This document shows, piece after piece, positions 1-43,834 of a stretch of 64,000 nt of DNA. How positions within the stretch are numbered: the stretch's first letter is position 1; the number at the start of each line of letters is the position of its first letter. The stretch is from Euglena gracilis. Its lineage: Eukaryota. The DNA is taken from assembly GCA_039621445.1 (NCBI GenBank), contig CP154954.1, positions 11,960,716-12,024,715 of the forward strand, read 5' to 3'. The notes below the pieces were generated by a model that saw only the letters and a list, made by a program, of their open reading frames with translations, made no database searches and was not told where the DNA came from. The position numbers were made by a program, and so were the translations under genes.

Positions 1-3000
1 TCGTACCAGGAACCTTCGTACAGCTCGTACGAGATTCCACAGCCGGAACCACAGAACCAGAACACTGACTGGGACTGGTGGTCGAACTTTGCGCACGAAA
101 CTGGACAGCTGACTCAGGAATTTAAACAGTTCAGACACAAAACTGAACGGACGAACCAGCAAACGGCAGAAACTCTGCAGCAGCTGCAACAAACAACGAC
201 GGAGTGGGTCAGCGAACTGCACGCCACAGTGAACAGACAGGGTGAAGCACTCATGACAGAAATAAACGGCAGACACGAAGAACTGACGACAGTCCTGGCA
301 ACAACACAAGCAAACATGGAACAAGTGACAGTCAACCAGAACAGGCTGTACCAGGAACATTTCAACGGAATGTCACAGCAGATCACAGAAATCAGGGAAA
401 TGTCTGGCTCACTGGGTGAAAAACTCAGGGAATTTCACAGTTTTCTGCAGATGGCAGGTGGAAACGCACAGAACCAGGGTGACCATCTGGTTGGTTTACT
501 ACATCGACAGCGAGAAAACGAAAAAACAACTGCAGAACTGCAACAGAGATTGGCTGTGGCAGAAGAACGGGTCGCAGGAATCACAGGCGGAGTCCAAACG
601 GTGAACAGCAAAGTGGACGAAACTGTGGCAACAGTGTCCAGAAAAGTTGAAAACCTCAGAGGTGAAATCAGCAGTATGGTGGAAAGAATTCAGAAGGACA
701 TGGGCAGTGAAATCGGAAATCTGGCAGGACGGGTTCAGCAGCAGGAAACAAAAACGACAACAACCATTCAAAACTGTGATTACCTGCACAAAAAACTGGT
801 CGAACTGCAGAAAATCCCAGATCAGCAGCAGCAGATTACACAGCTGAACGAGGAAATCGGCAGACTGAAACGACAGGTGGAAACCCTGACCTCCAACGAA
901 GAAAAACACAAACAACGCACTGAACGTCTGAACCTGGAGGTCGGCAACCTGGGTCACAGGGTGGACGAAACAGCCCAAACGACTCAAAACCTGCTGGGTG
1001 AACTACAAAAAGGGACCATTAAAACGGGAACACATGCCACATCTGAACATGCCAAATGGCTGGAAATGACATCTGCCATTGGCTCAATGACAACCAGGGT
1101 CGGTCAACTGGAAGCAAAACTGGCTGGTCTGACAACAAAAACTGCAGAACGGGAGACACATGACAACGGCATCTGGCAGCATTTACATTCTCTGACCACG
1201 GAACTGCAAACACAGCAGAAACGGTGGACAGAACAGCTGGTGACCCTGGACAGAAAAATCAGTACTGTGACAAAAACGACTGAAAACCTGACTGAAAAAC
1301 TGGAAAGGCAAAACACCCAGCAAATCACAACCCCCAGCCCTAGCCTGGCTGAAATACCCAAACTTTTTGAAAATCTTTGCATTTCCTCTCGCCCAGCCTG
1401 CACAGGGGCCTTCGGGCCAGAGTCAGGGGCCAGCCCCCTGGCCAGTGGGCCTCCCTCGAGGACCCAGGCTGGACAGCCAGGGGCAGCCACAACGGCCCAA
1501 CGAACAGAACCCCCCCAGGGGGCGGACAGGGCCGCGGGCCAACGGGGATCGGGGACCCCACAACCCCAGAACCAGCCCCCACCAGCCCCGAGGGGCCAGC
1601 CCACAAGACAACACGGGACGGGGACCCTAGAACCCCAGGCCTGGCCAACGGGGATGGGGACCCCACAACCCCTGGCCCAGCCACGGCCAGCCCTGAGGGG
1701 CCAGCCCGCAGGAAACCAAGGGACGGGGACCCCAGAACCCCTTGCCTGTCGAACGGGGACGGGGACCCCACAACCCCTGACAGGTATGTTCAGCCAGAGC
1801 AGCCAGCACTGGGGGGACGAAACACCACACCCAAAAATGGAAGGAGGAGCTGCAGCACTGGGGACCGTTAACTCGGCTTCCCTGGTGGGGCAGCTCATCC
1901 AACAAGAACTGAAAACTGCCTTGACACCGTTAATTGCCCAACTGACTCGACAAACAGAACGGCCGACTGCAGTCCCGACCAGCCCAGCTCTTACGACAAA
2001 CCCGACAAGCCCAGCACCACAGCCAACCCAGCCGACTCAACAGCCAGTGACGACACAACAAAACCCACAGTCCCGGACTCGGGGCTTGTTCATGTGGGCA
2101 GACGAAACCGAAACTCAGAACACAGCCACAACAACCTGGGTGGGACCCCAGATGGGGTCTGCCCAAACTGCCATCCACCACATAGGAGAGGAAACAGTGG
2201 TGGCACCCGTGGCAACGGCCCCGGCAGCATCCTTCGGGCTGCTGCTGGGTCCAGTGGGCGCGGCAATGACAAAAGACCTGGTAAGACCAACACTGCAGGG
2301 GAATTTCGCAGATTTTGCCGTGAAATTTCCGATGTACCTGCAACGTGTGTCAGCCGGTCAGGGGTCCCTGACCGATGACCTGAAACTGTCACTGCTGGAG
2401 GGCAGCCTGGACAGTGCCAGCAAACTGGAACTACAACGCAGACAGGAACGCGGTGAGAAAATAAAATACCAGGAATTTTGGAACTGGATGTGCCAGAAAT
2501 ACGGTGGAGACACGCAATCAGCCATCAAAGACGAACTGAAAACCTGAGACCAAAAACGGAAGGAAAACTGACACTGGAAGCGTGGAGGGAGTTTGAGGCC
2601 CATTTCAAACTCCTCTACAGCAGGCTGGAAAATCCATCAGAGGAAGACGCTTACAACCTGGTGGCTGAAAAAATGCCTGAAACGCAACGCAGAAGCTGCA
2701 TCAGGGAACAGGACCGCAGAAATCAGGACAGACCGACACTGAAACTGAAAGGGGTCACGAACATTATGAACGTCCCAGATGCAACAACGGAAGACATACG
2801 AGACCTGGTGGCAGCAACAGTGGGCACAGGTGAAAATTTTCAGGTGGCGCGGGACGGACAAAACTTCAGGATCCAACTGCACAGCAGCAGAGCTGCTGAA
2901 CTTCTCCTGATGAAAAACGGTTCAACGCTGCTGACTGGACACAAGCCACAATTCACACAGGTACAGGCCAAACTGACTCTGGACGAACTGTTCCAACGGG

Positions 3001-3637
3001 TGGAAACCGAACTCAGGTGCCAACAACAGTCAGACTCCCTGGGTAGGGGGTACAACGGCTGGCAGAACCAACCTCGTGAAAACAGGTCACGGTCGATGGA
3101 CCGCAGGGGTTACGTCAGGGAAGTCAAGGAGGAGGAGAAAACAAAATCCAGAAGTCGGACACCACCTTCCAGATCCCGACCCAACTCCCCTGGACCTCGA
3201 ACCCCAACACCCGAAAAACCCAGACCCCCTTCTCCACGCCAGCAGATGCCCATGGCAGTTTCAGAACAGCCTGGCCAGGGACGGAACACCAACTGGTCAG
3301 ACTGGGGACAGAACGACTGGGGCAAAGGCAAAGGAAAGGGGAAAGGTCAAAACTGGGGTTCAACCCAAAACTGGAACCAGAACTGGAATCAGAATTACGG
3401 CAAAGGCTACGATTCAGGAAAGGGATACAACTCTGGAAAGGATACGATTCTGGGAAGGGGAGCGGGAAAGGAAAAGGCAAAGGGCAGCCACAGCCACAGC
3501 CAGCAGCAACGAAAACCGAACCACAGACACAGCAAACCAATTCACAGGAGCCAGCCAACCAGCCACAGGGACAGCCAAAGGCAGAAGCATCTTCCAGCAA
3601 TCGCTGGCAGCCAGTTCAAAACACAGAACGGAAGTGA
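1..3637 (+). pseudogene. gag: Gag-like polyprotein, copy 1 (long coiled-coil, Pro/Gln-rich linker, capsid-like region, RS- and GKG-rich tail); frameshifted
   Basis: Frame open from base 1 (ORF 229-2547), continues in 2478-3653; single-base indels near 2540 and 3437 relative to copy 2; ends ERK-TGA at 3635-3637; no CCHC knuckle seen. Confidence 0.75.
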
Positions 3638-5272
3638 AGGGGCTGCGGCCTGAGGGTAGGGGACGAGAGGGGCGACTCTCTGCAGACACAACCGAAACAA
3701 CCAAACGAAACAAGGGAACCAGGTCCAGAGCCGCAGCGGTCATACACACTGGGTAAGGGAGGTAAGAAAAAACCCCAAAAGAAAAACATCCTGACAAAAA
3801 AACGACTCCACAGGCCAGAACCGAAAAGGGAACAGGTCAGCTGCAGGTTCGGCAGAGCAGCTTCACGGTGGGTGTCTGAAAACTACCACGTGAAGGAAGA
3901 AAAAATGACAGAAATTCTCTCACACTTCGGGGTCCAGCCCCAGCTGGATGCCTTTGCAACGGAAAAAAACAAAAGATTCCCGCAATGGTGGGGATCGGGC
4001 AGCCCAGACGGAACTGACGCCTTTGAAAAAGACTGGCACGGAAAACTGCTGTGGATGAACCCCCCATTCAGCAAAATTTCACAGGTGGTGAGAAAAATCC
4101 AAACAGACGAGGCCCATGCACTCCTCATGGTACCCAGATGGGTTCACAGAAAATGGTACGGAGAAATCAAAAAACTGACAGTGATGTCAATGTTCATCCC
4201 AGCGGGAACAAAACTGTTCGGACAGGGTGACAAGAACTGCAGGAATACACCGTGGCATGTGGAAGTGTTTTTGGTATGCGGACACAAAACACGGTGCAAG
4301 TACCTACCAGGTTTCCACAAACACTTCACCCCCCTACATCCGACATCCAAGGTGAGGTTCGGCACAGCCCACGAGTACCCGCCAGTGGAGGACGAGGTGG
4401 AGGGTGGTGAACAAAAACCTGATTTGGGGACAGAAAAACCACAGAAACACATCAGAAAACTGCAGGAGGCAGCCACAGCGACACCAGAATGGGCCATAGC
4501 GGAAAAACCAAAACCAAAAATGCTGGACCTGTTCTGTGGAACAAAATCGGTCAGCAAGGTGTATGAAAAAATGGGTTTCCAGGTGGTGACGGTGGACTCA
4601 GACCCCAGGTGGAAAGCGGATTACCAGGTGGACGTACTGGACTGGGACTTCAGAAAACATTTCAAACCTGGTGAATTCCACACGGTGGTTTGTGGAGTCC
4701 CCTGCACAGAATTCAGCATTGCACTGACGACAAGACCCAGAAACCTGGAAAAGGGAGACAGCCTTGCAAAGAAGGCCCTGGAAATTGTGGAATTTCTGCA
4801 GCCGCAGAAATGGTGGTTGGAAAACCCAAGGTACGGATACCTGGGAAAACGAGATTACATGAGGCCGTCCCCGTACATTGACGTGGATTACTGTCAATAC
4901 ACAAACTGGGGTTACAAAAAACCAACACGAATCTGGGGCAGCCCTGACATCCTGCAGGTACCAGCAAAACAGTGTGACGGAAAAACCTGCAAGAACCTTG
5001 ACCCGAACGGTGGTGGTCACCTGGTGAAACTCAGCAACAAACACAACATTTCAGCCTTCAAAAAATTCAGGACCCCAGAACAACTGATTCAGGACCTTGC
5101 GGGGTTCCACGAACGGCTAAGGCAAACCAGCCAAGCCCTAAGCCGCGCAGCAACAACCGCTGCAGCAGCCCAGCCCTGCCCAGACTGCACGACAAAACAT
5201 GCTCTCACAGCCCAGCGCAGAACTGACAGGTGGACAGCCAAACTCAGATTCAACGGACAAAACAGAACCTGA
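3638..5272 (+). CDS. Tandem DNA methyltransferase region: Dam-like N6-adenine MTase plus C5-cytosine MTase, copy 1
   Basis: N6 domain: LDAFA...DAFEKDW...LWMNPPF (NPPF 4058-4069)...LMVPRW. C5 domain: motif I MLDLFCG (4520), motif IV PC (4700-4705), motif VI ENP (4820-4828), YCQY...YKKPTRIW. Frame is open from the gag TGA onward. Confidence 0.9.
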   Translation, partial: RGCGLRVGDERGDSLQTQPKQPNETREPGPEPQRSYTLGKGGKKKPQKKNILTKKRLHRPEPKREQVSCRFGRAASRWVSENYHVKEEKMTEILSHFGVQPQLDAFATEKNKRFPQWWGSGSPDGTDAFEKDWHGKLLWMNPPFSKISQVVRKIQTDEAHALLMVPRWVHRKWYGEIKKLTVMSMFIPAGTKLFGQGDKNCRNTPWHVEVFLVCGHKTRCKYLPGFHKHFTPLHPTSKVRFGTAHEYPPVEDEVEGGEQKPDLGTEKPQKHIRKLQEAATATPEWAIAEKPKPKMLDLFCGTKSVSKVYEKMGFQVVTVDSDPRWKADYQVDVLDWDFRKHFKPGEFHTVVCGVPCTEFSIALTTRPRNLEKGDSLAKKALEIVEFLQPQKWWLENPRYGYLGKRDYMRPSPYIDVDYCQYTNWGYKKPTRIWGSPDILQVPAKQCDGKTCKNLDPNGGGHLVKLSNKHNISAFKKFRTPEQLIQDLAGFHERLRQTSQALSRAATTAAAAQPCPDCTTKHALTAQRRTDRWTAKLRFNGQNRT

Positions 5273-8200
5273 CCAAAACATTCGGCTTCCAAAACGACTG
5301 TGTGAACCGGTGTCCAAACTCCTGCTGGGGCAGGTCATCAGCAGAAAGAAAGCAAAACAACTCCTCATCGAAGTCCGTGCTGTGTTGCCGGACGGCAAAA
5401 AAATGTTCCTACAGGCCCTGATCGACACGGGAGCACAGGCAAACCTGGTGAAAAAGAACCTGATTCCCCAACAAAACTTCAGACGTTCACAAAAACACTT
5501 GGCCCTGATCACAGCGGACAAAACGAGGATGGAAGGAGGACTACACGAAGTCACACTGGAACTGCAGTTTTCATCACGGGTGCACAACACGGACAGAATA
5601 AGGGAATGTCCCACCATTGGAACATTCCATGACGCCGACATCCAAGTGGATGCCATCCTCGGGTATCCGTGGATGGAACAACACCAACTGGGGGTTTTTC
5701 CACACCTACAATCACTGGCCCTCATAGGTGAACCACTGCGGCTGCTGTCCAGTTGGCACCAGCTGAAGGAACAAAAACACAGGGAACGGAAAATACACCA
5801 ACTCCAGAAAAACATTTCGGCAGTGCGGGCAATGAATTTGCAGATTCCTGCTGAAGCGGGCCAGGACGAGGAAAAACTGTTTGAAGACGAAACGACGCTG
5901 GAAACACTGGCAAAACAATTTCAGAAATCGACAAATAAATCTGACAGGGTTCACGGTGTTGTGGTGGTGCCAGAAGGACAGGAAACACAAGGCGAAAAGG
6001 TGGCTGAACTGGTGAAAAAACTGCGGCAGGACTATGAAGGAGTGGTCTTGCGAGATAAAATCTTCCCAGACCCCCCTGAACGCGGACCACTGGGTTATGG
6101 GAAAATCGAACTGAAACCTGGAACAGTGGCAAAAAAGCAAAGACCCATCCACATGACGGGAGAACGACGACAGGCACTCATCGACATGGTGGACGAATGG
6201 GTTAGGGACCTGAAAGTGGAAGACGGGAGGAGTGACTGGTCCAGCCCCACGTTCGTGGTGGCCAAAAAAGGCGGAAAATGGAGAGGGGTGGTGGATTTCA
6301 GAGCACTGAACGAGGCAACAATCACAGACGCCCATCCCCTCCCCAGGATAGAAGACATCCTAGTTCAACAAGGACAACGGGCCCTGTACAGTGTACTGGA
6401 CCTGAAATACGCCTTCCACCAGGTGCCACTGAGAACAGAGTCCAGACCCTACACCTGCTGTAGCACACATAAGGGAACAAAACAGTGGAGAGTGGTGGTC
6501 ATGGGAATGAAAAACGGTGTACCGATCTTCCAGAGGGTGATCGAGTACAGCTTGGAGGAGGTACAGGACATTGCAAACCCCTACGTGGACGACATCATCG
6601 TAGGAATCATGTGGCAGGGATTTGAAGACAAAACCCTGGAACAACACGACAAGGACATCAGAAGGGTGATGGAGGCACTGAAAAAACAGCAGCACGTGGC
6701 AGACATCAAGAAATGCAAATTTTTCGTGAAAGAAGTTGAATTCTGTGGACACGTGCTGGGTGGTGGACAACGGAAACCTGCACCTGGAAAACTGATGGCT
6801 TTGGAAAAATGGGAGGAACCGAAAATGGTCACAGCCCTGCGGGCATTCCTGGGATTCACAAACTATTATGCCTCATACATCCCAGGGTATGCGGAATTGG
6901 CTGCAGACCTGATGGAAAAACTGAAGGTAAAAAAAGGACAGGGGAAGAAAGGAAGCCTGACACCTGTGTTTTTCGGTGAAAAGGAACAAACAGCCTTCCA
7001 GACCATCAAAGAAAAACTGCTCGGAAGCCTGAAACTGCAAACAGTGAACCCAGACAAACCGTTCGTACTCAGGGTGGATGCAAGTGGCAGAGCCGTAGGT
7101 GCGGCTCTGGAACAATTTGCGGAGGACACTGCAGAAAAACCAGACCCAACAACAGCCATGACCAAAAAAACAGTACCTGTAGCTTTCTGTTCACGAAAAC
7201 TGACACCTGGGCAGGTTCGCTCGTGGTCTCCTAGGGAGAAGGAGACCTACGCAGTGATCCTGGCCCTGCAAAAATGGGCTTCCTGGATAGGAATGCAACC
7301 GGTACTGGTGTTGACGGACCACAAATCCATTGAGGCATGGGCAACGGAAGCTCTGGACACCCCCAGTGGACCAGCGGGACGTAGGGCTAGGTGGCACGAA
7401 CTGCTTTCGCGGTTCGACATAACCGTTGCATACGTACCAGGCAAAGACAACACGGTCGCCGATGCCTTGAGTAGGTGGGCCTACCCCGCCTCACAGGCAT
7501 TCGCCGACGTGAGTATCCACGGGAGTGAGGAGGACGACCGACTCATGAAAGAAATCATCAAACAGGAGGAAAAGGAACAGAAAACTTGTATGGTGATCAA
7601 CGTGGCAGACCTGACACAGGCACAAAAACAGCTTCAGGAACCCGTCACTGTGGCCGTCACAACAAGGGGGGGAGCCAAAACGGGTGAAGATTCGCCCACA
7701 GTGCCTGGTTCAACGGAAAACGGTGACACCCCTCAAAAAATTTCAAACCCACCTCAAAAACCTGCAAAAACGACAAAGAAATGGGTTGTGAAGGAAACAA
7801 CTGTGGTGGAACCAAGCAAAAAACTGGCTGAGGCAACCCCAAGGGAGACCACGGATGAGGCAGGAAACCTGATCCGACCAGACCAACCAAAAAACAAAAC
7901 CCCAGAAAATTCAGACACGGCCGAGGGACCATCCACTGAGGAAGACCCACCAAGGCGAAGACCCCTGGAAGAGGACCCTGTGGAACCCCTAACAACAACA
8001 GACTCAACAAAACAACAGGACGCGCAAGGTGCGTCATCCTCAACGGGGACACCCGTTGGACCTCCATCAAGGGGAGTGCACGCCCCGGAGCTTCAACAGG
8101 GGGAACCGAAAGGGGTGATGGACAAGAAATGGAAGAACGAGTACGAAAGTTGCCCAAGGTGGGGACCTGTAAGGTGGGGACCTGTGCTCAAGATCCTGAA

Positions 8201-8291
8201 GGAAAGGGGGTTCAAAAACTGGCCTGACGGGTACCGATTTGACAACGGCAGGCTCTACAAAAAAGTCTCCTGTGTGTACCAAGTGGGTTGA
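5199..8291 (+). CDS. pol: Pol: aspartic protease, reverse transcriptase, RNase H, copy 1
   Basis: ALIDTGA and ILGYPW (protease); WRGVVDFRALN, LDLKYAFHQ, YVDD (RT); VDASGRAVGAAL, EKETYA, TDHK, NTVADALSR (RNase H). Confidence 0.95.
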   Translation: MLSQPSAELTGGQPNSDSTDKTEPDQNIRLPKRLCEPVSKLLLGQVISRKKAKQLLIEVRAVLPDGKKMFLQALIDTGAQANLVKKNLIPQQNFRRSQKHLALITADKTRMEGGLHEVTLELQFSSRVHNTDRIRECPTIGTFHDADIQVDAILGYPWMEQHQLGVFPHLQSLALIGEPLRLLSSWHQLKEQKHRERKIHQLQKNISAVRAMNLQIPAEAGQDEEKLFEDETTLETLAKQFQKSTNKSDRVHGVVVVPEGQETQGEKVAELVKKLRQDYEGVVLRDKIFPDPPERGPLGYGKIELKPGTVAKKQRPIHMTGERRQALIDMVDEWVRDLKVEDGRSDWSSPTFVVAKKGGKWRGVVDFRALNEATITDAHPLPRIEDILVQQGQRALYSVLDLKYAFHQVPLRTESRPYTCCSTHKGTKQWRVVVMGMKNGVPIFQRVIEYSLEEVQDIANPYVDDIIVGIMWQGFEDKTLEQHDKDIRRVMEALKKQQHVADIKKCKFFVKEVEFCGHVLGGGQRKPAPGKLMALEKWEEPKMVTALRAFLGFTNYYASYIPGYAELAADLMEKLKVKKGQGKKGSLTPVFFGEKEQTAFQTIKEKLLGSLKLQTVNPDKPFVLRVDASGRAVGAALEQFAEDTAEKPDPTTAMTKKTVPVAFCSRKLTPGQVRSWSPREKETYAVILALQKWASWIGMQPVLVLTDHKSIEAWATEALDTPSGPAGRRARWHELLSRFDITVAYVPGKDNTVADALSRWAYPASQAFADVSIHGSEEDDRLMKEIIKQEEKEQKTCMVINVADLTQAQKQLQEPVTVAVTTRGGAKTGEDSPTVPGSTENGDTPQKISNPPQKPAKTTKKWVVKETTVVEPSKKLAEATPRETTDEAGNLIRPDQPKNKTPENSDTAEGPSTEEDPPRRRPLEEDPVEPLTTTDSTKQQDAQGASSSTGTPVGPPSRGVHAPELQQGEPKGVMDKKWKNEYESCPRWGPVRWGPVLKILKERGFKNWPDGYRFDNGRLYKKVSCVYQVG

Positions 8292-9606
8292 CTGGAAACG
8301 TAATTCGGGAACATCACGAAATAGCCGGGCACCCAGGGTCAGCCCGACTGTGGGACCAGATGGGAAGGTGGTTTGCGTTTGCGGACCACCAAGATGCAAA
8401 GAAACTGACAGGCAAAATGATGACCATGTGTGAAACCTGCCAAGCAACAGAACCCAGCCACTTACCATACAAGTGCCCCATTGAACCGACACCGATTCCT
8501 GCACACCTGATGGACAGTGTTGCTATCGATTTGTTCTCACTACCTGAAACGACTTTTGAAGGGAAAAAATATGACACGTTGGCGTTGTGTGTGGACACGC
8601 TGAGTGGGTGGATGGTTGCAACCCCCCACCTGGCCAAGGGACTCACAGCAGAAAAGGTTGGAAAGGAAATGTACAAACAATGGGGAATTTTTGGGATACC
8701 CTCGGTGGTGAGCTCCGACCGGGGCTCCCATTTCACAGCCGGTTGGTGGAAAACACTGTGTGCTGCCCACGGGGTCCGTGTGGCGTACGGGCAGGCATAC
8801 CACCACCAAGCCAACGGACGGGCTGAGGTAGCGGGTCAACAAGTCCTCCGAAAACTGGCAAAACTGGCTGCTGAAAAAGGGGTACCCTGGGTTGAACTCC
8901 TACCAAACGCCTTGAGGGCCCTACACGACGTCCCAGGTGAAACGGGATTGTCACCGTACGAAATTGTGTTTGGCAGGCACAGACCGTTGGCGGGATTGCC
9001 ATACCAACCACAAAAGGAAGCGGAAGGGGCCACAACGTTCTTGGAAAGGATGAAAGAGCAAGACCAGTGGGTGAGTCTGGTCCTGAACGAAAAACAGCGT
9101 GAACGGGCTGAAACGGTGAACCGAAAACGCAGAGAACCACCTGCCTTGGAAATCGGTTCCAAAGTCTGGTATCAACCTAAAAGACAACCTGGTACCGGCA
9201 AACTCGAACCGAAGTGGAAAGGACCTGCGGTGGTGTTGGAACGGGTAGGACAGCCCTACGTGGTTGAACTACGACCTGGGAACCGACAACCTGCCCACCG
9301 TTCACAACTCAAACCCCACATGGAGGACCTCTACAACACAACCCCTGTCCCCCTCTACTTTTGGTCGGGCAAGGCACAGGAGTTGGATGTTGGACCGGAC
9401 GAGTGGGAGGTTGAAAAAGCGCTGAACCACCGCAGAAAAGACCGAAAACTTCAATTTTGATTCAGTGGAAAAACTGGGACCCATCTGATACTCAGTGGGA
9501 ACCCCTGAACCACTTCGTCCTTCGAACAAACAAAGATGTGGTCCAGTATTGCAAGAAACGGGACCTGGCTGTTGATGTGAGGGAGTTGCTCGATGGGATG
9601 GAGTGA
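8288..9606 (+). pseudogene. Integrase plus C-terminal chromodomain, copy 1 (frameshifts near 8265 and 9455)
   Basis: HH...H/CETC zinc finger, DLF...SDRG...NGRAE catalytic triad, WKGP motif, EWEVEK...QWKNW...QWEP chromodomain. Confidence 0.9.
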
Positions 9607-10725
9607 CACATGTCACGGGCCCCCTCACAGACACCGTCACGTCGACACCCCGAACGACCCCAAAGCCAACCCCAACCCTACCACCCAAACCAACCTCGAC
9701 TGACTTGAACCTGTACAAAATCTGCCTGGCCAAAACGACAAAACGGGCCTGGGCAGCCCCCCTGGCCAGCCCACCTGAACCTGAACCGCTGGCCAGCTCA
9801 ACTCGACCCAGCCCAACTGTCCCGTACAAGACCCGATCCGACCCGACTTGACTGACCTCAAGTGCCTCTCTTCAGCCAATCAATCCATTCTTCAATTCGC
9901 CATCGTTGTTGTTGTGGGTTGGGACCCCCCCTTGTGGAGAATGAACCTTCCCCCCGGACCTGGCAAGCCTACCTGTAAAAAAAAAAAAACACAGCCCCCA
10001 ACCCCAACCGTGGCAGCCAGCCAAAACTGGGCAAACGGTGGAAGGGGAACCTGACTTTGACCCAAAAACGCAGAGCTGGCCGACCCCGGGCCACCGGCCT
10101 GGGGGGGGGGGCGAGGATCCTCCACGGCACCAGACCTCGCACAAACCAGCCTACCCCCCAGAAAAAAATGGAAATATACAAAAAAACATTGTCCTTGACC
10201 CAGCCTGACTTTAACCAAAAACCCATCCTTCACCTGATTTTTATTAAAATTCGTCCCCGGCCAAAGCCTGACCGCTTGGCCTGGGGGGGGGTGGAAGACC
10301 CAAGCTGGACCCACCCCCCACCGAACAGACACCAAGCTTAGACACCGAATTGGCTAACCGAACAGAAAACGGCTGTCTAGGACCCTGACCGTGACAAAAC
10401 AACTCACCTGGCCTGGGAATAAAAATTTCCGGAAAATTTAACCGTGGTTGGCGCTTGGTTCACAACGGCGCCTGCCCCCCCCCCAACGACAAACAGCCCT
10501 AGGCGGGCTGGGGGGGGGGACAACACACCAGACCCCGCACAGACCCAACTGTCAAAGGAGAACATTTGACTCAGCCCCCCGGCCATAAAACGAACCTGAA
10601 CGGCACAGCCCCCTGAGGGGGGGGACCCTGAACCACAACGGTCCCCTCGCTCGCCCCCTCCTCACAACGAGTGCACTCCGCACCCCTTCCTGTTGGAGTC
10701 GTGAAGAGTTGTAAACAACTCCTTC

Positions 10726-10736
10726 GGGAAGGGGAG
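10726..10736 (+). promoter_or_regulatory. Polypurine tract, copy 1
   Basis: GGGAAGGGGAG immediately before the LTR-initial TGTG. Confidence 0.85.
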
Positions 10737-11215
10737 TGTGAGTCAGGGGTGCTGAGTGCCCAAAACAACATAACCTAACCCAACCCAACCTGATGACTCT
10801 GCAGTTAGGATTAGGAAAATCTTATTAGGAATTATTAGCAGCTGACCCCATTGTCCCTGCACAGGGCTCTGCAACTGTTTTTGTCTGTTTCAAGTTCAAG
10901 AATTGAATTATCTTGGTGGCAATCATCATTCTTACCTGGACAGTACGTGGTTCATAACATTGGTGCTGGTTTTGGAATTGCTGAATTGCTTGTATTGTGC
11001 TGTTGGTCTTGTGGATTTTTTATCAAAGAAAAGGTGTGAGCCACCCAACTCACCTGTTTTCACCAAAAAGACCCACAAAAACAAAAGAAAATGCAATTTT
11101 TAAAACAAGCCGCGAGGGGAATTGAAAACACATTGGGCAGGGTTAAAGATCCTACGCAAAGGGGTGCCGGCCTCGAGGAACTGGAAACTCCAGGGCGGGC
11201 ACCACGGGTACAACA
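10737..11215 (+). repeat. 3' LTR of copy 1 (479 bp)
   Basis: TGTGAGTCAGGGG...TACAACA; homologous to 20747-21216 and 33052-33521 but visibly more diverged. Confidence 0.93.
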
Positions 11216-12499
11216 TTATCCTATTATATTCGTTTCCGGCAATTGTTAGTTTTTTCTCTCTTTGTTCATAAGTGTCCTCATCGGGCCAGTGTATTACATT
11301 TAAAAAAAAACAGTGTATGAACATGAGTACGGGTTTTTTCTTTGCTTATTCCAATTAACAGGCTTGTACATATCACAGGTTCTCTTTCAACCAATTTGGT
11401 TTTCCTATTCTTGTTATTTTGCAAGGTGTCCCACAATCTATGTTTTAATTTGTGTTTCGTTTTTCCTTCTTTCTGTTTTTGCCATTTTGGACTGCCCTGA
11501 CCCATCTCAGCCATTATTGTACAGTTCTCCTTCGACGTCCCTGTCGCCTCCGACCATTCCATTGCTTTTGAGACCACCTACATTTCAGCCCCAATCCCTC
11601 ATCCAAAACCTTTCGGCGTGTACCAATCTGACAGCATCTCAGGTTTTTTTGTGGTGGTATTACTCATAATTGGTTATGATTACCACCTCTGCGGCCCAGT
11701 TATGTATATTTTCCCTGGACACCATCCTCTTTTTTCTGGCCTCACATTTTTCCCGGGGGCAGTTTTCACAAGTTATCAATTCTGTATTTGTGTTTGCGGT
11801 TGAGATTTCCCCTCCCATTCAGCCATCTGTTATTTACAGCGGATGTTGGTCCTGGGTTCCGTGATGGAGTCTCGTGAATGATGTTTGTCATAGTGCTTCG
11901 ATTTGGCCACCACACTCAACCCCTGTATTTTCCTCCCCCCGCTTACACGTTGGACCCGGACCCATCCGTCATGAACGTTTTGGTGGCTTGCTTTTCTTCA
12001 TTTCCTGCACCAGTTTCTGATTTTATCCTTTCTCCTTTGAAATGCTGGGCTCCCATAATTTGCACTGCGCACCACCATGAAACTTCGGCGTCCCATTTTT
12101 CGCCCCTTGATTTTCATGCTGCCTGCACTCTGGTTCTTCAACGCTCCCTTGCTCTAAAATTTCCCCTCACCTAACCCCCCCCCAAAGCTCCCTGCCACCC
12201 CTTTTTTTGGCCTGCCCTAACTTTTGTCCACGCTGTGGGCCTCCCCCATTGCATTCATCTTGTCATATGGCTCTCGCCCACGGGCTGGCTGTACTTGCTA
12301 CGTGTGCTTTTGTTTCCCTTATCTCCAACGCTCGGTTGCCTGGCGGGACCTTTTTTGAGAATCTTTCTCTTGGTCATGTTCAACCAGTTTTCCGTTCTCA
12401 TACTCAATGCCTGGCCCACCCCTCCCCAGGGCTCCGGGTCCCTTCGTGGGGATAGCTGTGGAAGTCGCCACCTCCTTCTCCTCACGGGAGCAGCCCTTC

Positions 12500-20746: not shown

Positions 20747-21216
20747 TGTGAGTCAGGGGTGCTGAGTGCCCAAAACAACATAACCTAACCCAACCCAACC
20801 TGATGACTCTGCAGTTAGGATTAGGAAAATCTTATTAGGAATTTCAATTGCTGACCCCATTGTCCCTGCACAGGGCTCTGTCTTGTTTTTGTCTGTTTCA
20901 AGTTCAAGAATTGAAAATATCTTGGTGGCAATTATCATTCTTACCTGGACTCTACGTACTTTTGGTTTTGGATCGGTGTGGTGTATTTGCTGAATTGCTT
21001 GTATTGTGCTGTTGGACTTGCGGATTTTTTTCAAAGGAAAGCCAACCAACCCACCTGTTTTCATTAAAAAGACCCACCAAAACAAAAGAAAATGCAATTT
21101 TTGAAACAAGCCGCGAGGGGAATTGAAATCACCCTGGGCAGGGTAAAAGATCCTACGCAACGGGGTGCCGGCCCCGAGGAACTGGAAACTCCAGGGCGGG
21201 TACCACGGATACAACA
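20747..21216 (+). repeat. 5' LTR of copy 2
   Basis: TGTGAGTCAGG...GATACAACA, direct repeat of 33052-33521. Confidence 0.95.
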
Positions 21217-21228
21217 TGGTCGCAGAGG
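21217..21228 (+). promoter_or_regulatory. Primer binding site, probably initiator tRNA-Met
   Basis: TGGTCGCAGAGG directly after the LTR end; one mismatch to TGGTAGCAGAGG, the complement of the 3' end of animal-type tRNAiMet. Confidence 0.7.
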
Positions 21229-21331
21229 TAGACTGCCCAATTTTGATTCCCCTCCAACGTGCGGCTACGAACAACAAGCTGAAAAACGACAAGAAACTGC
21301 AAAAACTGACGCTGACATGCCAGCTGCCGAA

Positions 21332-21550
21332 ACCGCCATCGCTAGGGTGGTGGAGCCGGCGGAGGGCAACTCAGCCATGTACCAAACTCTGGATGTGCCA
21401 ACTGCCTTAACCGCCATCGCTAGGGTGGTGGAGCAGGCGGATGGTTTCCCAGCCATGAACCAAACACTGGAAATGCCAGCTGCCTTAACCGCCATCGTTA
21501 GGGTGGTGGAGCCGGCAGATGGTTTTGCCGCCATGTACCAATCACTGGAC
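21332..21550 (+). repeat. About three in-frame 78-bp (26-aa) tandem repeats at the gag N-terminus
   Basis: ACCGCCATCG(C/T)TAGGGTGGTGGAG at 21332, 21410, 21488; peptide TAIARVVEPAxGxxAMYQTLD. Confidence 0.9.
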
Positions 21551-24500
21551 AGCAACAGGTGGACTGAAACTGAACAAGACGGCACAGACATTACAGTGCC
21601 ACGGACATGCAATGACAGCCCACGTGTCATTGCCATGGTGCACATGGACCAGGACGACACCGAACAGACCGGTCCAGCACCAGATTACACAGAACTGGAC
21701 GAAAACAACGAACCGTACTTCGACGAACAGGTGTTTGCACCACAAAACTGGTACCAACAGCCAGAAACGGACACTCAGAACAACCAAAACTGGCAAACCG
21801 CAACAGCACAGCAACCAGGAACCCCGAGTTTTGCACTGGTGGCGGTACGACAGAGCCCGGAACAACCAGACCGCCTCCAGGGTGAAACTGAAACTTCGTA
21901 CCAGGAACCTTCGTACAGCTCGTACGAGATTCCACAGCCGGAACCACAGAACCAGAACACTGACTGGGACTGGTGGTCGAACTTTGCGCACGAAACTGGA
22001 CAGCTGACCCAGGAATTTCAACAGTTCAGACACAAAACTGAACGGACGAACCAGCAAACGGCAGAAACTCTGCAGCAGCTGCAACAAACAACGACGGAGT
22101 GGGTCAGCGAACTGCACGCCACAGTGAACAGACAGGGTGAAGCACTCATGACAGAAATAAACGGCAGACACGAAGAACTGACAACAGTGCTGGCAACAAC
22201 ACAAGCAAACATGGAACAGGTGACAGTCAACCAGAACAGGCAATACCAGGAACATTTCAACGGAATGTCACAGCAGATCACAGAAATCAGGGAAATGTCT
22301 GGCTCACTGGGTGAAAAACTCAGGGAATTTCACAGTTTTCTGCAGATGGCAGGTGGAAACGCACAGAACCAGGGTGAACATCTGGTTGGTTTACTACACC
22401 GACAGCGAGAAAACGAAAAAACAACTGCAGAACTGCAACAGAGATTGGCTGTGGCAGAAGAACGGGTCGCAGGAATCACAGGCGGAGTCCAAACGGTGAA
22501 CAGCAAAGTGGACGAAACTGTGGCAACAGTGTCCAGAAAAGTTGAAAACCTAAGAGGCGAAATCAGCAGTGTGGTGGAAAGAATTCAGAAGGACATGGGC
22601 AGTGAAATCGAAAATCTGGCAGGACGGGTTCAGCAGCAGGAAACAAAAACGACAACAACCGTTCAAAATTGTGATTACCTGCACAAAAAACTGGTCGAAC
22701 TGCAGAAAATCACAGATCAGCAGCAGCAGATTACACAGCTGAACGAGGAAATCGGCAGACTGAAACGACAGGTGGAAACTCTGACCTCCAACGAAGAAAA
22801 ACACAAACAACGCACTGAACGCCTGAACCTGGAGGTCGGCAACCTGGGTCACAGGGTGGACGAAACAGCCCAAACGTCTCAAAAACTGCTGGGTGAACTA
22901 CAAAAAGGGACCATTAAAACAGGAACACATGACACGTCTGAACATGCCAAATGGCTGGAAATGACATCTGCCATTGGCTCAATGACAACCAGGGTCGGTC
23001 AACTGGAAACAAAACTGGCTGGTCTGACAACAAAAACTGCAGAACGGGAAACACATGACAACGGCATCTGGCAGCATTTACATTCGCTGACCACGGAACT
23101 GCAAACACAGCAGAAACGGTGGACAGAACAGCTGGTGACCCTGGACAGAAAAATCAGTACTGTGACAAAAACGACTGAAAACCTGACTGAAAACTGGAAA
23201 GGCAAAACACCCAGCAAATCACAACCCCCAGCCCTAGCCTGGCTGAAATACCCAAACTTTTTGAAAATCTTTACATTTCCTCTCGCCCAGCCTGCACAGG
23301 GGCCTTCGGGCCAGAGTCAGGGGCCAGCCCCCTGGCCAGTGGGCCTCCCTCGAGGATCCAGGCTGGACAGCCAGGGGCAGCGACAACGGCCCAACGGACT
23401 GAACAACCCCGCCAGGGGGCAGACAGGGCCGCGGGTCAACGGGGATCGGGGACCCCACAACCCCAGAACCAGCCCCCGGCAGCCCTGAGGGGCCAACCCA
23501 CAGGACAACACGGGACGGGGACCCCAGAACCCCACACCTGGCAGACGGGGATGGGGACCCCACAACCCCTGGCCCAGCCACGGCCAGCCCTGAGGGGCCA
23601 GCCCGCAGGAAACCAAGGGAAGGGGACCCCAGAACCCCAGGACTGTCAAACGGGGACGGGGACCCCACAACCCCTGACAGGTATGTTCAGCCAGAGCAGC
23701 CAGCAGTGGGGGGACGAAACACCACACCCAAAAATGGAAGGAGGAGCTGCAGCACTGGGGACCGTTAACTCGGCTTCCCTGGTGGGGCAGCTCATCCAAC
23801 AAGAACTGAAAACTGCCTTGACACCGTTAATTGCCCAACTGACTCGACAAACAGAACGACCGACTGCAGTCCCGACCAGCCCAGCACTACTTACGACAAA
23901 CCCGACAAGCCCAGCACCACAGCCAACCCAGCCGACTCAACAGCCAGTGACGACACAACAAAACCCACAGTCCCGGACTCGGGGCTTGTTCATATGGGCA
24001 GACGAAACTGAAACTCAGAACACAGCCACAACAACCTGGGTGGGACCCCAGATGGGGTCTACCCAAACTGCCATCCACCACATAGGAGAGGAAACAGTGG
24101 TGGCACCCGTGGCAACGGCCCCGGCAGCATCCTTCGGGCTGCTGCTGGGTCCAGTGGGCGCGGCAATGACAAAAGACCTGGTGAGACCAACACTGCAGGG
24201 GAATTTCGCAGATTTTGCCGTGAAATTTCCGATGTACCTGCAACGACTTCAGCCGGTCAGGGGTCCCTGACCGATGACCTGAAACTGTCACTGCTGGAGG
24301 GCAGCCTGGACAGTGCCAGCAAACTGGAACTACAACGCAGACAGGAACGCGGTGAGAAAATAAAATACCAGGAATTTTGGAACTGGATGTGCCAGAAATA
24401 CGGTGGAGACACACAATCAGCCATCAAAGACGAACTGAAAAACCTGAGACCAAAAACGGAAGGAAAACTGACACTGGAAGCGTGGAGGGAGTTTGAGGCC

Positions 24501-25544
24501 CATTTCAAACTCCTCTACAGCAGGCTGGAAAATCCATCAGAGGAAGACGCTTACAACCTGGTGGCTGAAAAAATGCCTGAAACGCAACGCAGAAGCTGCA
24601 TCAGGGAACAGGACCGCAGAAATCAGGACAGACCGACACTGAAACTGAAAGGGGTCACGAACATTACAAACGTCCCAGATGCAATGACGGAAGACGTTCG
24701 TGACCTGGTGGCAGCAACTGTGGGTACAGGTGAGAATTTTCAGGTGGCACGAGACGGACAAAACTTCAGGATCCAACTGCACAGCAGAAGAGCTGCTGAA
24801 CTGCTCCTGATGAAAAACGGTTCAACGCTGCTGACTGGACACAAGCCACAATTCACACAGGTACAGGCCAAACTGACATTGGACGAACTGTTCCAACGGG
24901 TGGAAACCGAACTCAGGTGCCAACAACAGTCAGACTCCCTAGGTAGGGGGTACAACGGCTGGCAGAACCAACCTCGTGAAAACAGATCACGGTCGATGGA
25001 CCGCAGGGGTTACGTCAGGGAAGTCAAGGAGGAGGAGAAAACAAAATCCAGAAGTCGGACACCACCTTCCAGATCCCGACCCAACTCCCCTGGACCTCGA
25101 ACCCCAACACCTGAAAAACCCAGGCCCCCTTCTCCACGCCAGCAGGTGCCCATGGCAGTTTCAGAACAGCCTGGCCAGGGACGGTACACCAACTGGTCAG
25201 ACTGGGGACAGAACGACTGGGGCAAAGGCAAAGGAAAGGGGAAAGGTCAAAACTGGGGTTCAACCCAAAACTGGAACCAGAACCAGAACTGGAATCAGAA
25301 TTACGGCAAAGGCTACGATTCAGGAAAGGGATACAACTCTGGGAAAGGATACGATTCTGGGAAGGGGAGCGGGAAAGGAAAAGGCAAAGGGCAGCCACAG
25401 CCACAGCCAGCAGCAACGAAAACAGAACCACAGACTCAGCAAACCAACTCACAGGAGCCAGCCAACCAGCCACAGGGACAGCCAAAGGCAGAAGCATCTT
25501 CCAGCAACCGCTGGCAGCCAGTTCAAAACGCAGAACGGAAGTGA

Positions 25545-33040: not shown

Positions 33041-33051
33041 GGGAAGGGGAG
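33041..33051 (+). promoter_or_regulatory. Polypurine tract, copy 2
   Basis: GGGAAGGGGAG before the 3' LTR. Confidence 0.85.
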
Positions 33052-33521
33052 TGTGAGTCAGGGGTGCTGTGTGCCCAAAACAACATAACCTAACCCAACC
33101 CAACCTGATGACTCTGCAGTTAGGATTAGGAAAATCTTATTAGGAATTTGAATTGCTGACCCCATTGTCCCTGCACAGGGCTCTGTCTTGTTTTTGTCTG
33201 TTTCAAGTTCAAGAATTGAAAATATCTTGGTGGCAATTATCATTCTTACCTGGACTCTACGTACTTTTGGTTTTGGATCGGTGTGGTGTATTTGCTGAAT
33301 TGCTTGTATTGTGCTGTTGGACTTGTGGATTTTTTTCAAAGGAAAGCCAACCAACCTACCTGTTTTCATTAAAAAGACCCACCAAAACAAAAGAAAATGC
33401 AATTTTTGAAACAAGCCGCGAGGGGAATTGAAATCACCCTGGGCAGGGTAAAAGATCCTACGCAACGGGGTGCCGGCCCCGAGGAACTGGAAACTCCAGG
33501 GCGGGTACCACGGATACAACA
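33052..33521 (+). repeat. 3' LTR of copy 2
   Basis: Direct repeat of 20747-21216, TG...CA termini. Confidence 0.95.
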
Positions 33522-36494: not shown

Positions 36495-36563
36495 GGCGAG
36501 TGGCATAGTGGTACAGCGTTTGTCTGTCAACCGTGTGGTCGTGGGTTCGATTCCCACCTCGTC
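36495..36563 (+). pseudogene. tRNA-like relic or tRNA-derived SINE head (GTC at the anticodon position)
   Basis: A-box TGGCATAGTGG, T-arm GTGGG-TTCGATT-CCCAC, acceptor GGCGAG/CTCGTC, T6 terminator; anticodon stem does not pair. Confidence 0.6.
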
Positions 36564-37265: not shown

Positions 37266-37284
37266 TCTGTCTGTATAAGGGCGA

Positions 37285-43761: not shown

Positions 43762-43834
43762 TTCTATGGAAGAAATGGACTGCAAAAATTCGTTTGCAAA
43801 GGAGGTGCAAAATTCTTGAAACGGAACAAATTGC

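Follow-up and report, generated by a model that had tools for sequence, protein, structure and literature searches.

LTR retrotransposons that encode a DAM domain, a cytosine DNA methyltransferase (DNMT) and a chromodomain were recently named EpiLTRs (Fernandez-Moreno et al., bioRxiv May 2026, 10.64898/2026.05.21.726589); the preprint reports them from Euglena gracilis and Cymbomonas tetramitiformis and places their DNMT sister to DNMT4, in a clade common to the elements of the two hosts. The same source describes CpG methylation as heavy and as the default state in E. gracilis, finds DAM-LTR insertions to carry more 6mA than other LTRs do, and reports that related DAMs expressed in dam- E. 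coli gave no gain of 6mA, for which its authors raise an RNA-DNA hybrid as substrate. Retrotransposons that have captured a C5 DNMT have also been described (KnitGypsy-Dnmt3, SymbioDIRS-Dnmt3 and SymbioLINE-Dnmt); these carry it in the coding region with key residues kept and Ka/Ks < 0.2, and de novo CG methylation by retrotransposon DNMTs has been demonstrated (de Mendoza et al. 2018, PMC5890265). The initial annotation of the DNA analysed here cited Dam-like methyltransferases (MTases) in DIRS elements and DNMT capture in dinoflagellate and charophyte retrotransposons, in agreement with that paper; its further remark that no LTR element was known to carry both types of MTase is superseded by the EpiLTR preprint. 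Iyer, Zhang and Aravind (2016, PMC4738411) placed the MTase domains of DIRS1 in the PCIF1 clade, suggested RNA binding or PCIF1 mimicry as their role, and deemed DIRS-type MTase domains likely inactive.

The stretch of E. gracilis DNA analysed here (64,000 nucleotides of contig CP154954.1; hereafter the window) contains two copies of a Ty3/Gypsy chromovirus-like LTR retrotransposon of about 12.8 kb, both on the + strand, as are all of their features given below. Copy 2 (20747-33522) is full length and copy 1 (1-11216) is truncated by the window start. As to identity and architecture, we are confident that both are copies of one high-copy element of the EpiLTR kind; 29,833 contigs of a single DNA run (X1) were placed on copy 2. 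From 5' to 3' the element consists of an LTR, a gag whose N-terminus is a long coiled coil, an in-frame TGA, a Dam-like domain, a C5 MTase of about 215 amino acids, aspartic protease (PR), reverse transcriptase (RT), RNase H, DDE integrase, chromodomain, a long 3' region, polypurine tract and LTR. In copy 2 the DAM, the DNMT and the chromodomain all lie between one LTR pair. The LTRs of copy 2, located by self-BLAST and sequence reading at about 20747..21216 (TGTGAG...ACAACA) and about 33052..33521, have TG...CA ends and are 99.15% identical across 471 bp (20747-21217 versus 33052-33522 in the self-BLAST), and the 3' LTR of copy 1 (10737..11216) has about 89% identity to them (LTR divergence of copy 1 from copy 2, 10.9%).

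Reading of the sequence places a polypurine tract at 33041..33051, immediately 5' of the 3' LTR of copy 2, and a putative primer-binding site, a TGG... stretch at 21217..21228 that abuts the 5' LTR. This stretch occurs once in the window, yet 26 of 100 shuffles held at least one match to it; the Rfam scan of the window returned three tRNAs and nothing else, and none of the three has a matching 3' end. Copy 2 shows no target-site duplication, the five bases before the element differing from the five after it. Contigs of an RNA library (X20) span 28 of 30 bins of the element, including the gag-TGA-DAM and DAM-C5 junctions, a coverage that does not show transcription. Elsewhere in the window, the - strand carries at 37111-47569 a DIRS-like element that encodes a tyrosine recombinase (Pfam) and a Dam-like domain of its own, and a tandem repeat with a unit of more than 500 bp lies in the region from 48 to 64 kb. 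We considered and rejected a DIRS identity for the MTase-bearing copies themselves; they have H2C2 and rve integrase domains, and the tyrosine recombinase of the window belongs to the separate element.

The gag region of copy 2 (21068..25544; ORF lists, translations and the indel list) comprises an N-terminal coiled-coil part, a PQ-rich spacer, a gag-like core and a low-complexity GKG/NWNQ tail, and 1-bp indels that distinguish it from copy 1 divide it into ORFs 21068-23488, 23191-24270 and 24012-25544. That of copy 1 (1..3637), whose 5' end is lost at the window start, is represented by ORFs 1-2547 and 2457-3653, with 1-bp indels again shifting the frame. In Pfam the gag region gave weak coiled-coil-type matches only, and no CCHC knuckle. 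Gag and the MTase-pol frame are separated by an in-frame TGA at 25542..25544 in copy 2 and 3635-3637 in copy 1, and the copy 2 ORFs that start at 24012 and 25545 have a common frame. One TGA common to both copies suggests that pol might be expressed by readthrough, with this codon as the candidate site. Among the rows listed, other runs show no difference at this position, which does not establish that they conserve the codon. In the relatives P0007 and P0008 the frame is open upstream of the DAM domain, which counts against TGA readthrough. A structured signal of the hairpin or pseudoknot type 3' of the TGA was considered and rejected (MFE -15.3 kcal/mol, z +1.16; an equally good fold arises in 177 of 200 shuffles). 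A G4-like run begins 1 nt past the TGA in both copies, but is a lead only, because the + strand of the window holds 53 such runs.

The two MTase domains lie between the gag-like ORF on one side and the PR (DTG)-RVT_1-RNase H ORF on the other, in stop-to-stop ORFs at 3638..5272 in copy 1 (Dam-like about 3851-4342, C5 about 4499-5152; Pfam and indel list) and 25545-27137 in copy 2. The ORFs and Pfam matches thus bear out what had been claimed for both copies, a Dam-like domain followed by a C5 MTase between gag and protease. Frameshifts occur outside the MTase cassette in both copies, but over its roughly 1.5 kb (3638-5138 and 25545-27045) there is not one indel between them, and self-BLAST found no repeat flanking it. 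The frame into PR is broken at separate indels in the two copies, near 5139 (copy 1) and near 5208, and is unbroken in a third, metagenomic copy (P0005, 97% identity), where DAM, C5 and PR form one ORF. Both domains are genuine folds that retain their catalytic motifs, and they are encoded in the frame of pol.

Between the two copies the MTase domains are under purifying selection comparable to that on the core pol enzymes. The dN/dS ratio is 0.30 for DAM (5 synonymous and 6 nonsynonymous changes), 0.07 for C5 (20 and 6) and 0.13 for the two together, against 0.35 for PR, 0.13 for RT, 0.08 for RNase H and 0.21 for integrase, all figures coming from a single pair of copies with small counts; neutral evolution of the domains, which would have spoken against the initial annotation, is not what this one pair displays. 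Both domains occur in 24 of 194 fetched relatives and in 12 of 18 long polyproteins (integrase and chromodomain are also present in 4 of these 12), the environmental relatives have the two MTase domains in at least six orders, and the catalytic motifs are retained in relatives of as little as 32-36% identity whose domains form a fusion with RT-RH-IN-chromo. A metagenome DNA scan for loci with both domains returned 19 loci, each of which matched the C5 part alone, and a phmmer search of the PDB sequences with P0001 gave no match.

The pol order PR-RT-RNase H-IN holds, with an integrase of the DDE type. In copy 1 the PR (DTG)-RVT_1-RNase H ORF is intact (5142..8291, 1049 amino acids; translation and Pfam), with Pfam scores of 86.7 bits for RVT_1, 75.1 for RT_RNaseH and 67.6 for RT_RNaseH_2. 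The parallel region of copy 2 (26885..29660; ORF list and indels, the domains having been called on the copy 1 ORF) is split into ORFs 26885-28513, 28459-29142 and 29109-29660, and 192 bp of copy 1 are missing from it. The integrase ORF of copy 2 (29512..31317) matches H2C2 (26 bits), rve (28.5 bits, under its cut-off of 32.6) and SH3_Tf2-1 in Pfam and has a chromodomain at its end (about 31114-31218; PF00385, 38.4 bits, cut-off 25.1). The initial annotation had the integrase end in a chromodomain; this holds for copy 2, but in copy 1 (integrase at 8243..9610; Pfam, three-frame translation and indel list) a 1-bp frameshift near 9455 interrupts the chromodomain.

The Dam-like N6-MTase-like domain (25758..26249 in copy 2, with DAFA and NPPF motifs; Pfam and AF2) matches PF05869 with 32.0 and 32.1 bits in the two ORFs (cut-off 28.1; residues 92-179/190), and also matches phrog_111 and TIGR01712 (phage N6A MTase), the latter with 27.5, far under its cut-off of 97. 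An alignment of 38 Dam-like domains shows P71 without variation and conservation of 90% or more at D33, F35, N70 and P72. The domain of the DIRS-like element in the window is 31% identical to that of the LTR element over 88 residues (pairwise E 3e-12). The AF2 model of the Dam-like domain (pLDDT 88.3) gives a different ranking of relatives from that of the sequence profiles: PCIF1/CAPAM chains were the top three Foldseek matches in the PDB (best E 1.3e-5, TMq 0.60) and six of the eight with E <= 0.001, the other two being KsgA rRNA adenine methylases, and in the VIA wide search PCIF1 (6irx_A) had Z 11.1 (rmsd 3.6, alignment of 150 of 164 residues), a lead of 2.7 over the following row, compared with Z 7.8 for the Dam proteins of E. 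coli and T4. Among the matches listed, the closest solved fold to the predicted one is therefore that of PCIF1, the RNA cap m6Am methyltransferase. This ranking may be biased, because PF05869 members are absent among the matches listed in both fold searches. PCIF1 itself carries an NPPF motif. The likeness to PCIF1/CAPAM is nonetheless one of fold, with 11-17% identity in the structural alignments, and the WW domain was absent from the Dam-like ORF in Pfam. The profile of the 38 Dam-like domains found no PCIF1 chain among the PDB sequences; its matches were all insignificant (E >= 0.15) and fell on the C5 part of long rows.

The compact C5 MTase domain (26406..27059 in copy 2) has motifs I (FCGTKS), IV (VPC), VI (ENP), an VIII-like KPTRIW and an X-like FRIP. 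It matches PF00145 with 22.8 and 23.0 bits in the two ORFs, about 1 bit over the cut-off of 22 (residues 294-396), a match limited to profile positions 2-110 of 324, that is, to motifs I-VI; both MTase profiles are thus above their gathering cut-offs, although PF00145 only marginally. The predicted structure (AF2, pLDDT 94.2, pTM 0.89) confirms a complete C5 MTase fold that includes the part beyond the PF00145 match: its top Foldseek matches in the PDB were DNMT1, DIM-2, DNMT3A/B and M.HaeIII (prob 1.0, TMq 0.46-0.63), and for most of the leading DNMT1/DNMT3 matches the alignment extends over 181-194 columns. By profile (A1) against the PDB, motifs I and IV-VI align to DNMT1 (E 2.7e-6), to its PCQ and ENV. 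Across an alignment of 56 C5 domains, which range from 38-100% in identity to its first row, P68 and C69 are invariant and E108-N109 nearly so. The catalytic motifs had been called intact, and NPPF, LDLFCG, PC (as VPC) and ENP are indeed present in both copies, but in motif I of the window Lys replaces the second Gly of FxGxG (FCGTKS, where most relatives have FSGTGS); Lys is found there in four other sequences of the 56 rows (P0005, P0038, P0053 and P0058) and Asn in three. We would give even odds that both MTase domains are catalytically active.

The C5 domain resembles stand-alone viral MTases of about 210-220 amino acids. It matches phrog_757 (6.6e-14), and stand-alone C5 MTases of phages (Bacillus phage Deep Blue type) are of similar size and similar over their full length; tblastn covered at least 80% of the domain in 27 of 58 phage records, with 28-31% identity in the 15 listed. 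The top match in BFVD was a 218-amino acid protein of Tetraselmis virus 1 (E 6.4e-22, TMq 0.79, 34% identity), and metagenome ORFs of 200-226 amino acids also match, one of them adjoining a tail-fibre-like gene. The short viral C5 MTases are free genes, whereas the domain in the window is part of a retrotransposon polyprotein, and in a quick tree 111 retroelement C5 domains stand apart from eight stand-alone ones with weak support (80).

The two copies also carry a signal of CpG hypermutability. Positions in CpG context differ between them in 10.5% of cases, compared with 3.1% elsewhere (3.4-fold), and their CpG observed/expected ratios are 0.57-0.59. The faster CpG change fits copies that are 5mC-methylated in the genome; it does not indicate which enzyme is the writer.

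The initial annotation had proposed that the element may mark its own cDNA or new insertion, and these features can be joined in a scheme of that sort. Occasional readthrough of the TGA would give a Gag-Pol fusion whose pol part begins with the two MTase domains, and we propose that the MTases would therefore be packaged in the particle beside reverse transcription. The C5 domain would methylate the cDNA or the newly inserted copy, with CpG as the most likely target, and the new copy would then match the default CpG methylation of the host genome. The Dam-like domain would N6-methylate adenine in nucleic acid of the element (RT intermediate, cDNA or RNA), a mark that might favour expression of the new copy or of its transcript, and the chromodomain would steer integration to chromatin marked by methyl-lysine. 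Against this reading stand the lack of 6mA gain with related DAMs in dam- E. coli (10.64898/2026.05.21.726589), the view that DIRS-type MTase domains are likely inactive (PMC4738411), the closeness of the Dam-like model to PCIF1, the Lys in motif I and the marginal PF00145 score of the C5 domain, the single shared TGA with no stable structure after it, the frameshifts in both copies and the missing target-site duplication of copy 2. The scheme as a whole is offered tentatively, as a possibility that we would not press; as the best overall explanation of the locus we mildly favour an EpiLTR-type element with a self-marking mechanism of this kind.

Other explanations assign the cassette different roles. 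The Dam-like domain may be a PCIF1-like RNA module rather than a writer of 6mA on DNA, leaving the C5 domain alone to act on DNA; its substrate would be either the transcript of the element itself, at an adenosine next to the cap or at an internal one, or the RNA strand in the RT hybrid, or the domain might merely bind template RNA or mimic host PCIF1. PCIF1 tops both Foldseek and VIA (Z 11.1, against 7.8 for Dam), and the placement of DIRS1 MTases in the PCIF1 clade (PMC4738411) and the lack of 6mA in E. coli expressing related DAMs (10.64898/2026.05.21.726589) point the same way, but the sequence profiles (PF05869, TIGR01712 and phrog_111) say Dam and find no PCIF1, the structural matches listed include no PF05869 member, the preprint reports higher 6mA on DAM-LTR insertions, and a common fold does not fix the substrate. 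We consider this somewhat unlikely, and find a more specific form of it less likely still, namely that the Dam-like domain, also in DIRS elements, is a PCIF1-type methyltransferase of RNA or RNA:DNA hybrid that acts on the template of its element and not on double-stranded DNA, with a virus-derived mini C5 MTase as the partner that methylates the cDNA. If that were true, the cassette would mark both sides of reverse transcription, RNA with one domain and DNA with the other, which would account for the negative outcome of the dam- E. coli assays and reconcile the 2016 PCIF1-clade and 2026 "prokaryotic DAM" readings.

The C5 domain might instead restrain its own element by methylating new insertions, with immediate silencing, less damage to the host and persistence of the family as the outcome and the Dam-like domain as a structural or regulatory partner. 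CpG depletion and the 3.4-fold faster CpG change in the copies are in keeping with this, as are LTR expression that is low or undetectable in E. gracilis despite the 6mA of DAM-LTRs and the usual tie between chromodomains and integration in gene-poor chromatin (both 10.64898/2026.05.21.726589). It is nevertheless distinctly improbable in our estimate: the very high abundance of the element (29,833 contigs in one DNA run) argues against strong self-limitation, element-level selection for self-silencing would be hard to maintain, and the CpG data do not separate methylation by the host from methylation by the element. That the cassette is only a passenger, whether through nested insertion, through chimeric assembly or as a functionless capture in decay, is disfavoured and seems to us most improbable. 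The preprint does warn that nested insertions or artefacts of assembly may be among the DAM-LTR/DIRS mixtures of Euglena (10.64898/2026.05.21.726589), the window does hold a DIRS-like element with a Dam-like domain, and both copies are defective; against this, the cassette has the same position in two copies, a third ORF runs on into PR, there is neither a flanking repeat nor an indel over about 1.5 kb, dN/dS is 0.13 across both domains, the motifs are kept in relatives of 32-36% identity fused to RT-RH-IN-chromo, and the Dam domain of the DIRS-like element is only 31% identical to that of the cassette.

Compared by description only, the element in the window fits the EpiLTRs reported from Euglena. 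Those are Ty3-like LTR elements with DAM, DNMT and chromodomain that occur alongside DAM-carrying DIRS-like elements, and the window has the same combination; their host has CpG methylation by default, and the window copies have hypermutable CpGs. Their domain order is not stated in the accessible text of the preprint, in which there is likewise no mention of a PCIF1-like fold, a TGA boundary or a range of domain orders. The EpiLTR of Cymbomonas tetramitiformis is also chromovirus-like, with DAM, DNMT and chromodomain, and its DNMT reportedly has a common origin with that of Euglena, but it has the DNMT at the 3' end of pol (10.64898/2026.05.21.726589), whereas in the window element both MTases stand in tandem between gag and protease. 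The DNMTs of de Mendoza et al. (PMC5890265) are, as described there, of the Dnmt3 type or of a Symbiodinium-specific lineage and have no Dam-like partner; the C5 domain in the window is compact (about 215 amino acids) and viral-like. With DIRS1-type MTase domains the element has PF05869 and the DxFA ... NPP[FYW] motifs in common, but DIRS1-type elements have a tyrosine recombinase and the Gypsy copies in the window have a DDE integrase (H2C2 and rve) and direct LTRs. The kind of element is thus real but not new, and because it is now in the preprint the window is mainly an independent, well-resolved example, in which the LTRs and frames can be read, two copies have diverged and a DAM-DIRS element lies in the same stretch. 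What is added here is the PCIF1-like predicted fold, which sharpens the question of enzyme activity and substrate, the likeness of the C5 domain to viral MTases, at least six domain orders and the 3.4-fold faster change at CpG. Elements that write marks on DNA or RNA and also read histone marks would mean that transposons can edit the epigenetic state where they land, beyond suffering silencing.

The two copies of the Ty3/Gypsy-like element both lie on the forward strand, and self-BLAST of the window aligns them in three blocks, copy 1 positions 1–6216 with 21896–28127 of copy 2 (96.9% identity), 6398–9614 with 28117–31325 (96.3%) and 9711–11216 with 32020–33522 (90.5%). Copy 2 is bounded by direct repeats of 471 bp (20747–21217 and 33052–33522, 99.15% identical by self-BLAST), and is therefore a complete element, some 12.8 kb long (20747–33522); the 5' part of copy 1 lies beyond the window start, and its 3' LTR occupies 10737–11216 (+ strand). 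The LTRs begin with TGTGAG and end with ACAACA. A stretch starting with TGG stands directly 3' of the copy 2 5' LTR and matches no tRNA encoded in the window, a purine run (33041–33051, + strand, from the sequence) stands just before the 3' LTR, and no target-site duplication was found at the copy 2 ends. A long stretch separates the stop codon of the integrase ORF from the 3' LTR (31318–33051 in copy 2, 9614–10736 in copy 1). That of copy 2 has three additional blocks (204, 168 and 208 bp) relative to copy 1 and a 252-codon ORF (31200–31958) without a Pfam match; the portions common to both copies are about 90–93% identical, below the coding region.

The methyltransferase (MTase) cassette is a single stop-to-stop ORF on the + strand of each copy, 544 codons at 3638–5272 and 530 codons at 25545–27137. 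The initial annotation described a Dam-like domain (DAM) followed by a C5-MTase (C5) in both, and the ORFs, the motifs (NPPF, LDLFCG, VPC and ENP, all present in both copies) and Pfam agree with it: Dam (PF05869) scores 32.0 and 32.1 bits in copies 1 and 2 (cut-off 28.1) and DNA_methylase (PF00145) 22.8 and 23.0 bits (cut-off 22; profile positions 2–110 of 324). Beyond the cassette, an intact 1049-codon ORF of copy 1 encodes a DTG protease (PR) motif and gives Pfam matches to RVT_1 at 86.7 bits and to RNase H at 75.1 bits; integrase (H2C2, rve) comes next. The chromodomain claimed for the integrase terminus does form the end of that ORF in copy 2 (PF00385, 38.4 bits; cut-off 25.1); in copy 1 a 1-bp frameshift near 9455 interrupts it. 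The gag region opens with a long coiled coil; then come a spacer rich in P and Q, a core resembling gag and a low-complexity GKG/NWNQ tail, and Pfam finds no CCHC knuckle. At the N-terminus of gag (1–1400 and 21380–23300) the predicted coiled coil extends over several hundred residues and is followed by PQ-rich repeats, the coiled-coil part having only weak Pfam matches (Apolipoprotein-type and other coiled-coil types); this is not a usual N-terminus for the gag of a Gypsy element.

In copy 2 the last gag ORF (24012–25544) shares its frame with the MTase ORF, a single TGA lying between them, and the identical TGA is present at 3635–3637 in copy 1, where a 1-bp indel at 3435 is all that puts the two frames out of register. 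We infer that this TGA is the gag/pol boundary and that pol would be expressed by stop-codon readthrough. No stable hairpin was found 3' of the TGA (folding z +1.16). A G4-like run (GGGG N11 GGG N2 GGGG N6 GGGG) begins 1 nt past this codon in each copy (3639–3672 and 25546–25579) and might affect readthrough; such runs are common, with 53 on the + strand of the window. The frame from cassette to protease is lost at separate indels in the two copies, near 5139 and 5208, and a third copy represented by protein only (P0005, 97% identical) runs uninterrupted through DAM-C5-PR, so the cassette is part of pol. As read from these sequences, the element order is gag, TGA, DAM, C5, PR, reverse transcriptase (RT), RNase H (RH), integrase (IN) and chromodomain.

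Nei-Gojobori dN/dS values for copy 1 against copy 2, a single pair with small counts, are 0.30 for DAM (5 synonymous and 6 nonsynonymous changes), 0.07 for C5 (20 and 6) and 0.13 for the two together (29 and 15); those for the other enzymes are 0.35 for PR (7 and 8), 0.13 for RT (11 and 6), 0.08 for RH (11 and 3) and 0.21 for IN (15 and 11). Over about 1.5 kb of cassette the two copies align without an indel. Their LTRs have diverged by 10.9%, which, with the low cassette dN/dS, indicates that the copies come from sub-lineages that split while the cassette was constrained like the core enzymes. The gag coiled-coil/PQ-rich region has a dN/dS of 0.36.

The 38 aligned Dam-like domains all have P71 and show at least 90% conservation of D33, F35, N70 and P72. 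Sequence profiles assign the domain to Dam (PF05869, phrog_111, and TIGR01712 below its cut-off), and the 38-domain profile found no PCIF1 chain among PDB sequences. The nearest solved structures to its predicted model (pLDDT 88.3) are PCIF1/CAPAM, not Dam: of the eight Foldseek matches at E ≤ 0.001, PCIF1/CAPAM chains account for six and KsgA for two, and VIA, which is independent of Foldseek, places PCIF1 first (Z 11.1, rmsd 3.6, 150 of 164 residues; next row 8.4), with E. coli Dam and T4 Dam at Z 7.8. Iyer, Zhang and Aravind 2016 (PMC4738411) assigned the DIRS1 MTase domain to the PCIF1 clade and considered it probably inactive.

An alignment of 56 C5 relatives (38–100% identity to the first row) shows the PC dipeptide invariant, E108-N109 of ENP nearly so, and the stretches KPTRIW and, at the C-terminus, [YF]RIP also kept. 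C132, C159, C164 and H174, which vary little or not at all, could together make up a zinc site within the small target-recognition region. Motif I is FCGTKS, with Lys at the second Gly position of FxGxG; most relatives have FSGTGS, four other sequences have Lys there and three have Asn. The AlphaFold2 model from this alignment (pLDDT 94.2, pTM 0.89) matches DNMT1, DIM-2, DNMT3A/B/C and M.HaeIII in the PDB (Foldseek probability 1.0, E from 4e-8, TMq 0.46–0.63), with 181–194 columns aligned in most DNMT1/DNMT3 matches, and the C5 profile aligns with DNMT1 at motif I and motifs IV–VI (E 2.7e-6). The closest non-retroelement kin are free viral MTases of about equal size: phrog_757 matches the domain (E 6.6e-14), tblastn finds 58 phage records (27 covering at least 80%; 28–31% identity among the 15 listed), and the best BFVD structure is a 218-aa protein of Tetraselmis virus 1 (E 6.4e-22, TMq 0.79, 34% identity). 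Metagenome ORFs of 200–226 aa also match, one of them adjoining a tail-fibre-like gene. On a 12-kb metagenome contig (L001) a stand-alone short C5 MTase (phrog_757; 6108–6725, + strand) lies 2.5 kb from a second small MTase (phrog_799, a weak match to the Dam-like domain; 9211–9732, – strand), a pair that is possibly a free-living counterpart of the cassette.

A word-indexed search found 57 related proteins, eight of which span at least 78% of the two-domain query (34–97% identity), and a HMMER scan of 1.84 billion representatives gave 5152 at E ≤ 1e-3, 1498 at ≤ 1e-10 and 178 at ≤ 1e-30. When 194 fetched proteins were scored with the window's own MTase domains, 24 had both, in the orders DAM-C5(-PR) (14), C5-DAM (3), PR-C5-DAM (2), PR-DAM-C5 (2), DAM-PR-C5 (2) and C5-PR-DAM (1); C5 alone matched in another 103, many of them fragments. 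Both MTases occur in 12 of 18 long polyproteins, and four of these 12 (P0203, P0205, P0210 and P0213) also have RT-RH-IN-chromodomain. A quick tree of 120 C5 domains places the window inside a supported clade (97) of 16 rows holding the DAM-C5-PR types and the PR-DAM-C5 types in a separate supported clade of 15 rows; a weakly supported split (80) sets eight stand-alone metagenome ORFs apart from the 111 retroelement rows. The family is very abundant in the organism of one DNA run, since 29,833 of its contigs map to copy 2. Contigs from leaf-litter metatranscriptome RNA libraries cover 28 of 30 bins of copy 2, which is not proof of transcription, and two metatranscriptome pieces (812 and 754 nt, about 97%) span gag-TGA-DAM and DAM-C5.

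CpG o/e is 0.57–0.59 in the element as against 0.62–0.68 in most flanking parts, and the copies differ at 10.5% of CpG-context positions as against 3.1% elsewhere. This excess shows the signature of 5mC deamination and points to methylated copies; it does not tell which enzyme is the writer. ApT, the host 6mA site according to a preprint (bioRxiv 10.64898/2026.05.21.726589), has an o/e of 0.63–0.64 in the element and 0.82–0.92 in neighbouring sequence, a depletion that could just mirror the A-rich, T-poor coding strand.

A DIRS-like element (37111–47569, – strand) with 100% identical 102-bp repeats (37111–37212 and 47468–47569) lies nearby. It encodes RVT_1 (37575–38690, Pfam), a tyrosine recombinase (39132–40022, PF00589, 27.2 bits), its own Dam-like ORF (42889–44460, PF05869, 29.5 bits), whose Dam domain is 31% identical to that of the Gypsy element, and a cold-shock-domain ORF (47027–47464; 26.3 bits, just under the Pfam cut-off of 27). 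Three tRNA genes (36493–36566, 47899–47973 and 48043–48116) are Gln-CTG, a gene whose anticodon call is odd, and Thr-AGT; two of them adjoin the outer side of the DIRS-like element's upper repeat. A tandem array (about 49600–64000) has units of about 2.4–2.6 kb, 92–97% identical and with internal sub-repeats, GC of 54% and CpG o/e of 0.79 (above the rest of the window), and only low-complexity ORFs; Tandem Repeats Finder returned no rows for it, the unit being longer than its 500-bp period limit.

De Mendoza et al. 2018 (PMC5890265) reported DNMTs within Symbiodinium elements of LINE-like and DIRS-like type and within a Klebsormidium Gypsy element, and noted Dam-like domains in DIRS, in agreement with the background given in the initial annotation. 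Its further claim, that no LTR element was known with both MTase types, does not stand, as the architecture is already described in the same preprint (May 2026), which reports Ty3/Gypsy-like LTR elements with DAM domains from several lineages and names those with DAM, DNMT and chromodomain EpiLTRs, in Cymbomonas and Euglena gracilis. There the Cymbomonas EpiLTR has its DNMT at the pol 3' end, that of E. gracilis is "structurally distinct", and the EpiLTR DNMT clade is sister to DNMT4; CpG methylation is the default in E. gracilis, 6mA is higher on DAM-LTRs than on other LTRs, and DAMs expressed in dam- E. coli gave no 6mA gain. Literature searches for "EpiLTR", and for "Euglena gracilis" with retrotransposon, chromodomain and methyltransferase, found only this preprint. 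The tandem cassette, the chromodomain and the DAM-DIRS neighbour in a CpG-methylated, repeat-rich genome fit, by elimination, the Euglena EpiLTR as that preprint describes it. The accessible preprint text does not give the predicted PCIF1-like fold for the Dam-like domain, the likeness of C5 to viral mini-MTases, the TGA as boundary, the occurrence of six domain orders in environmental relatives or the selection figures for each domain.
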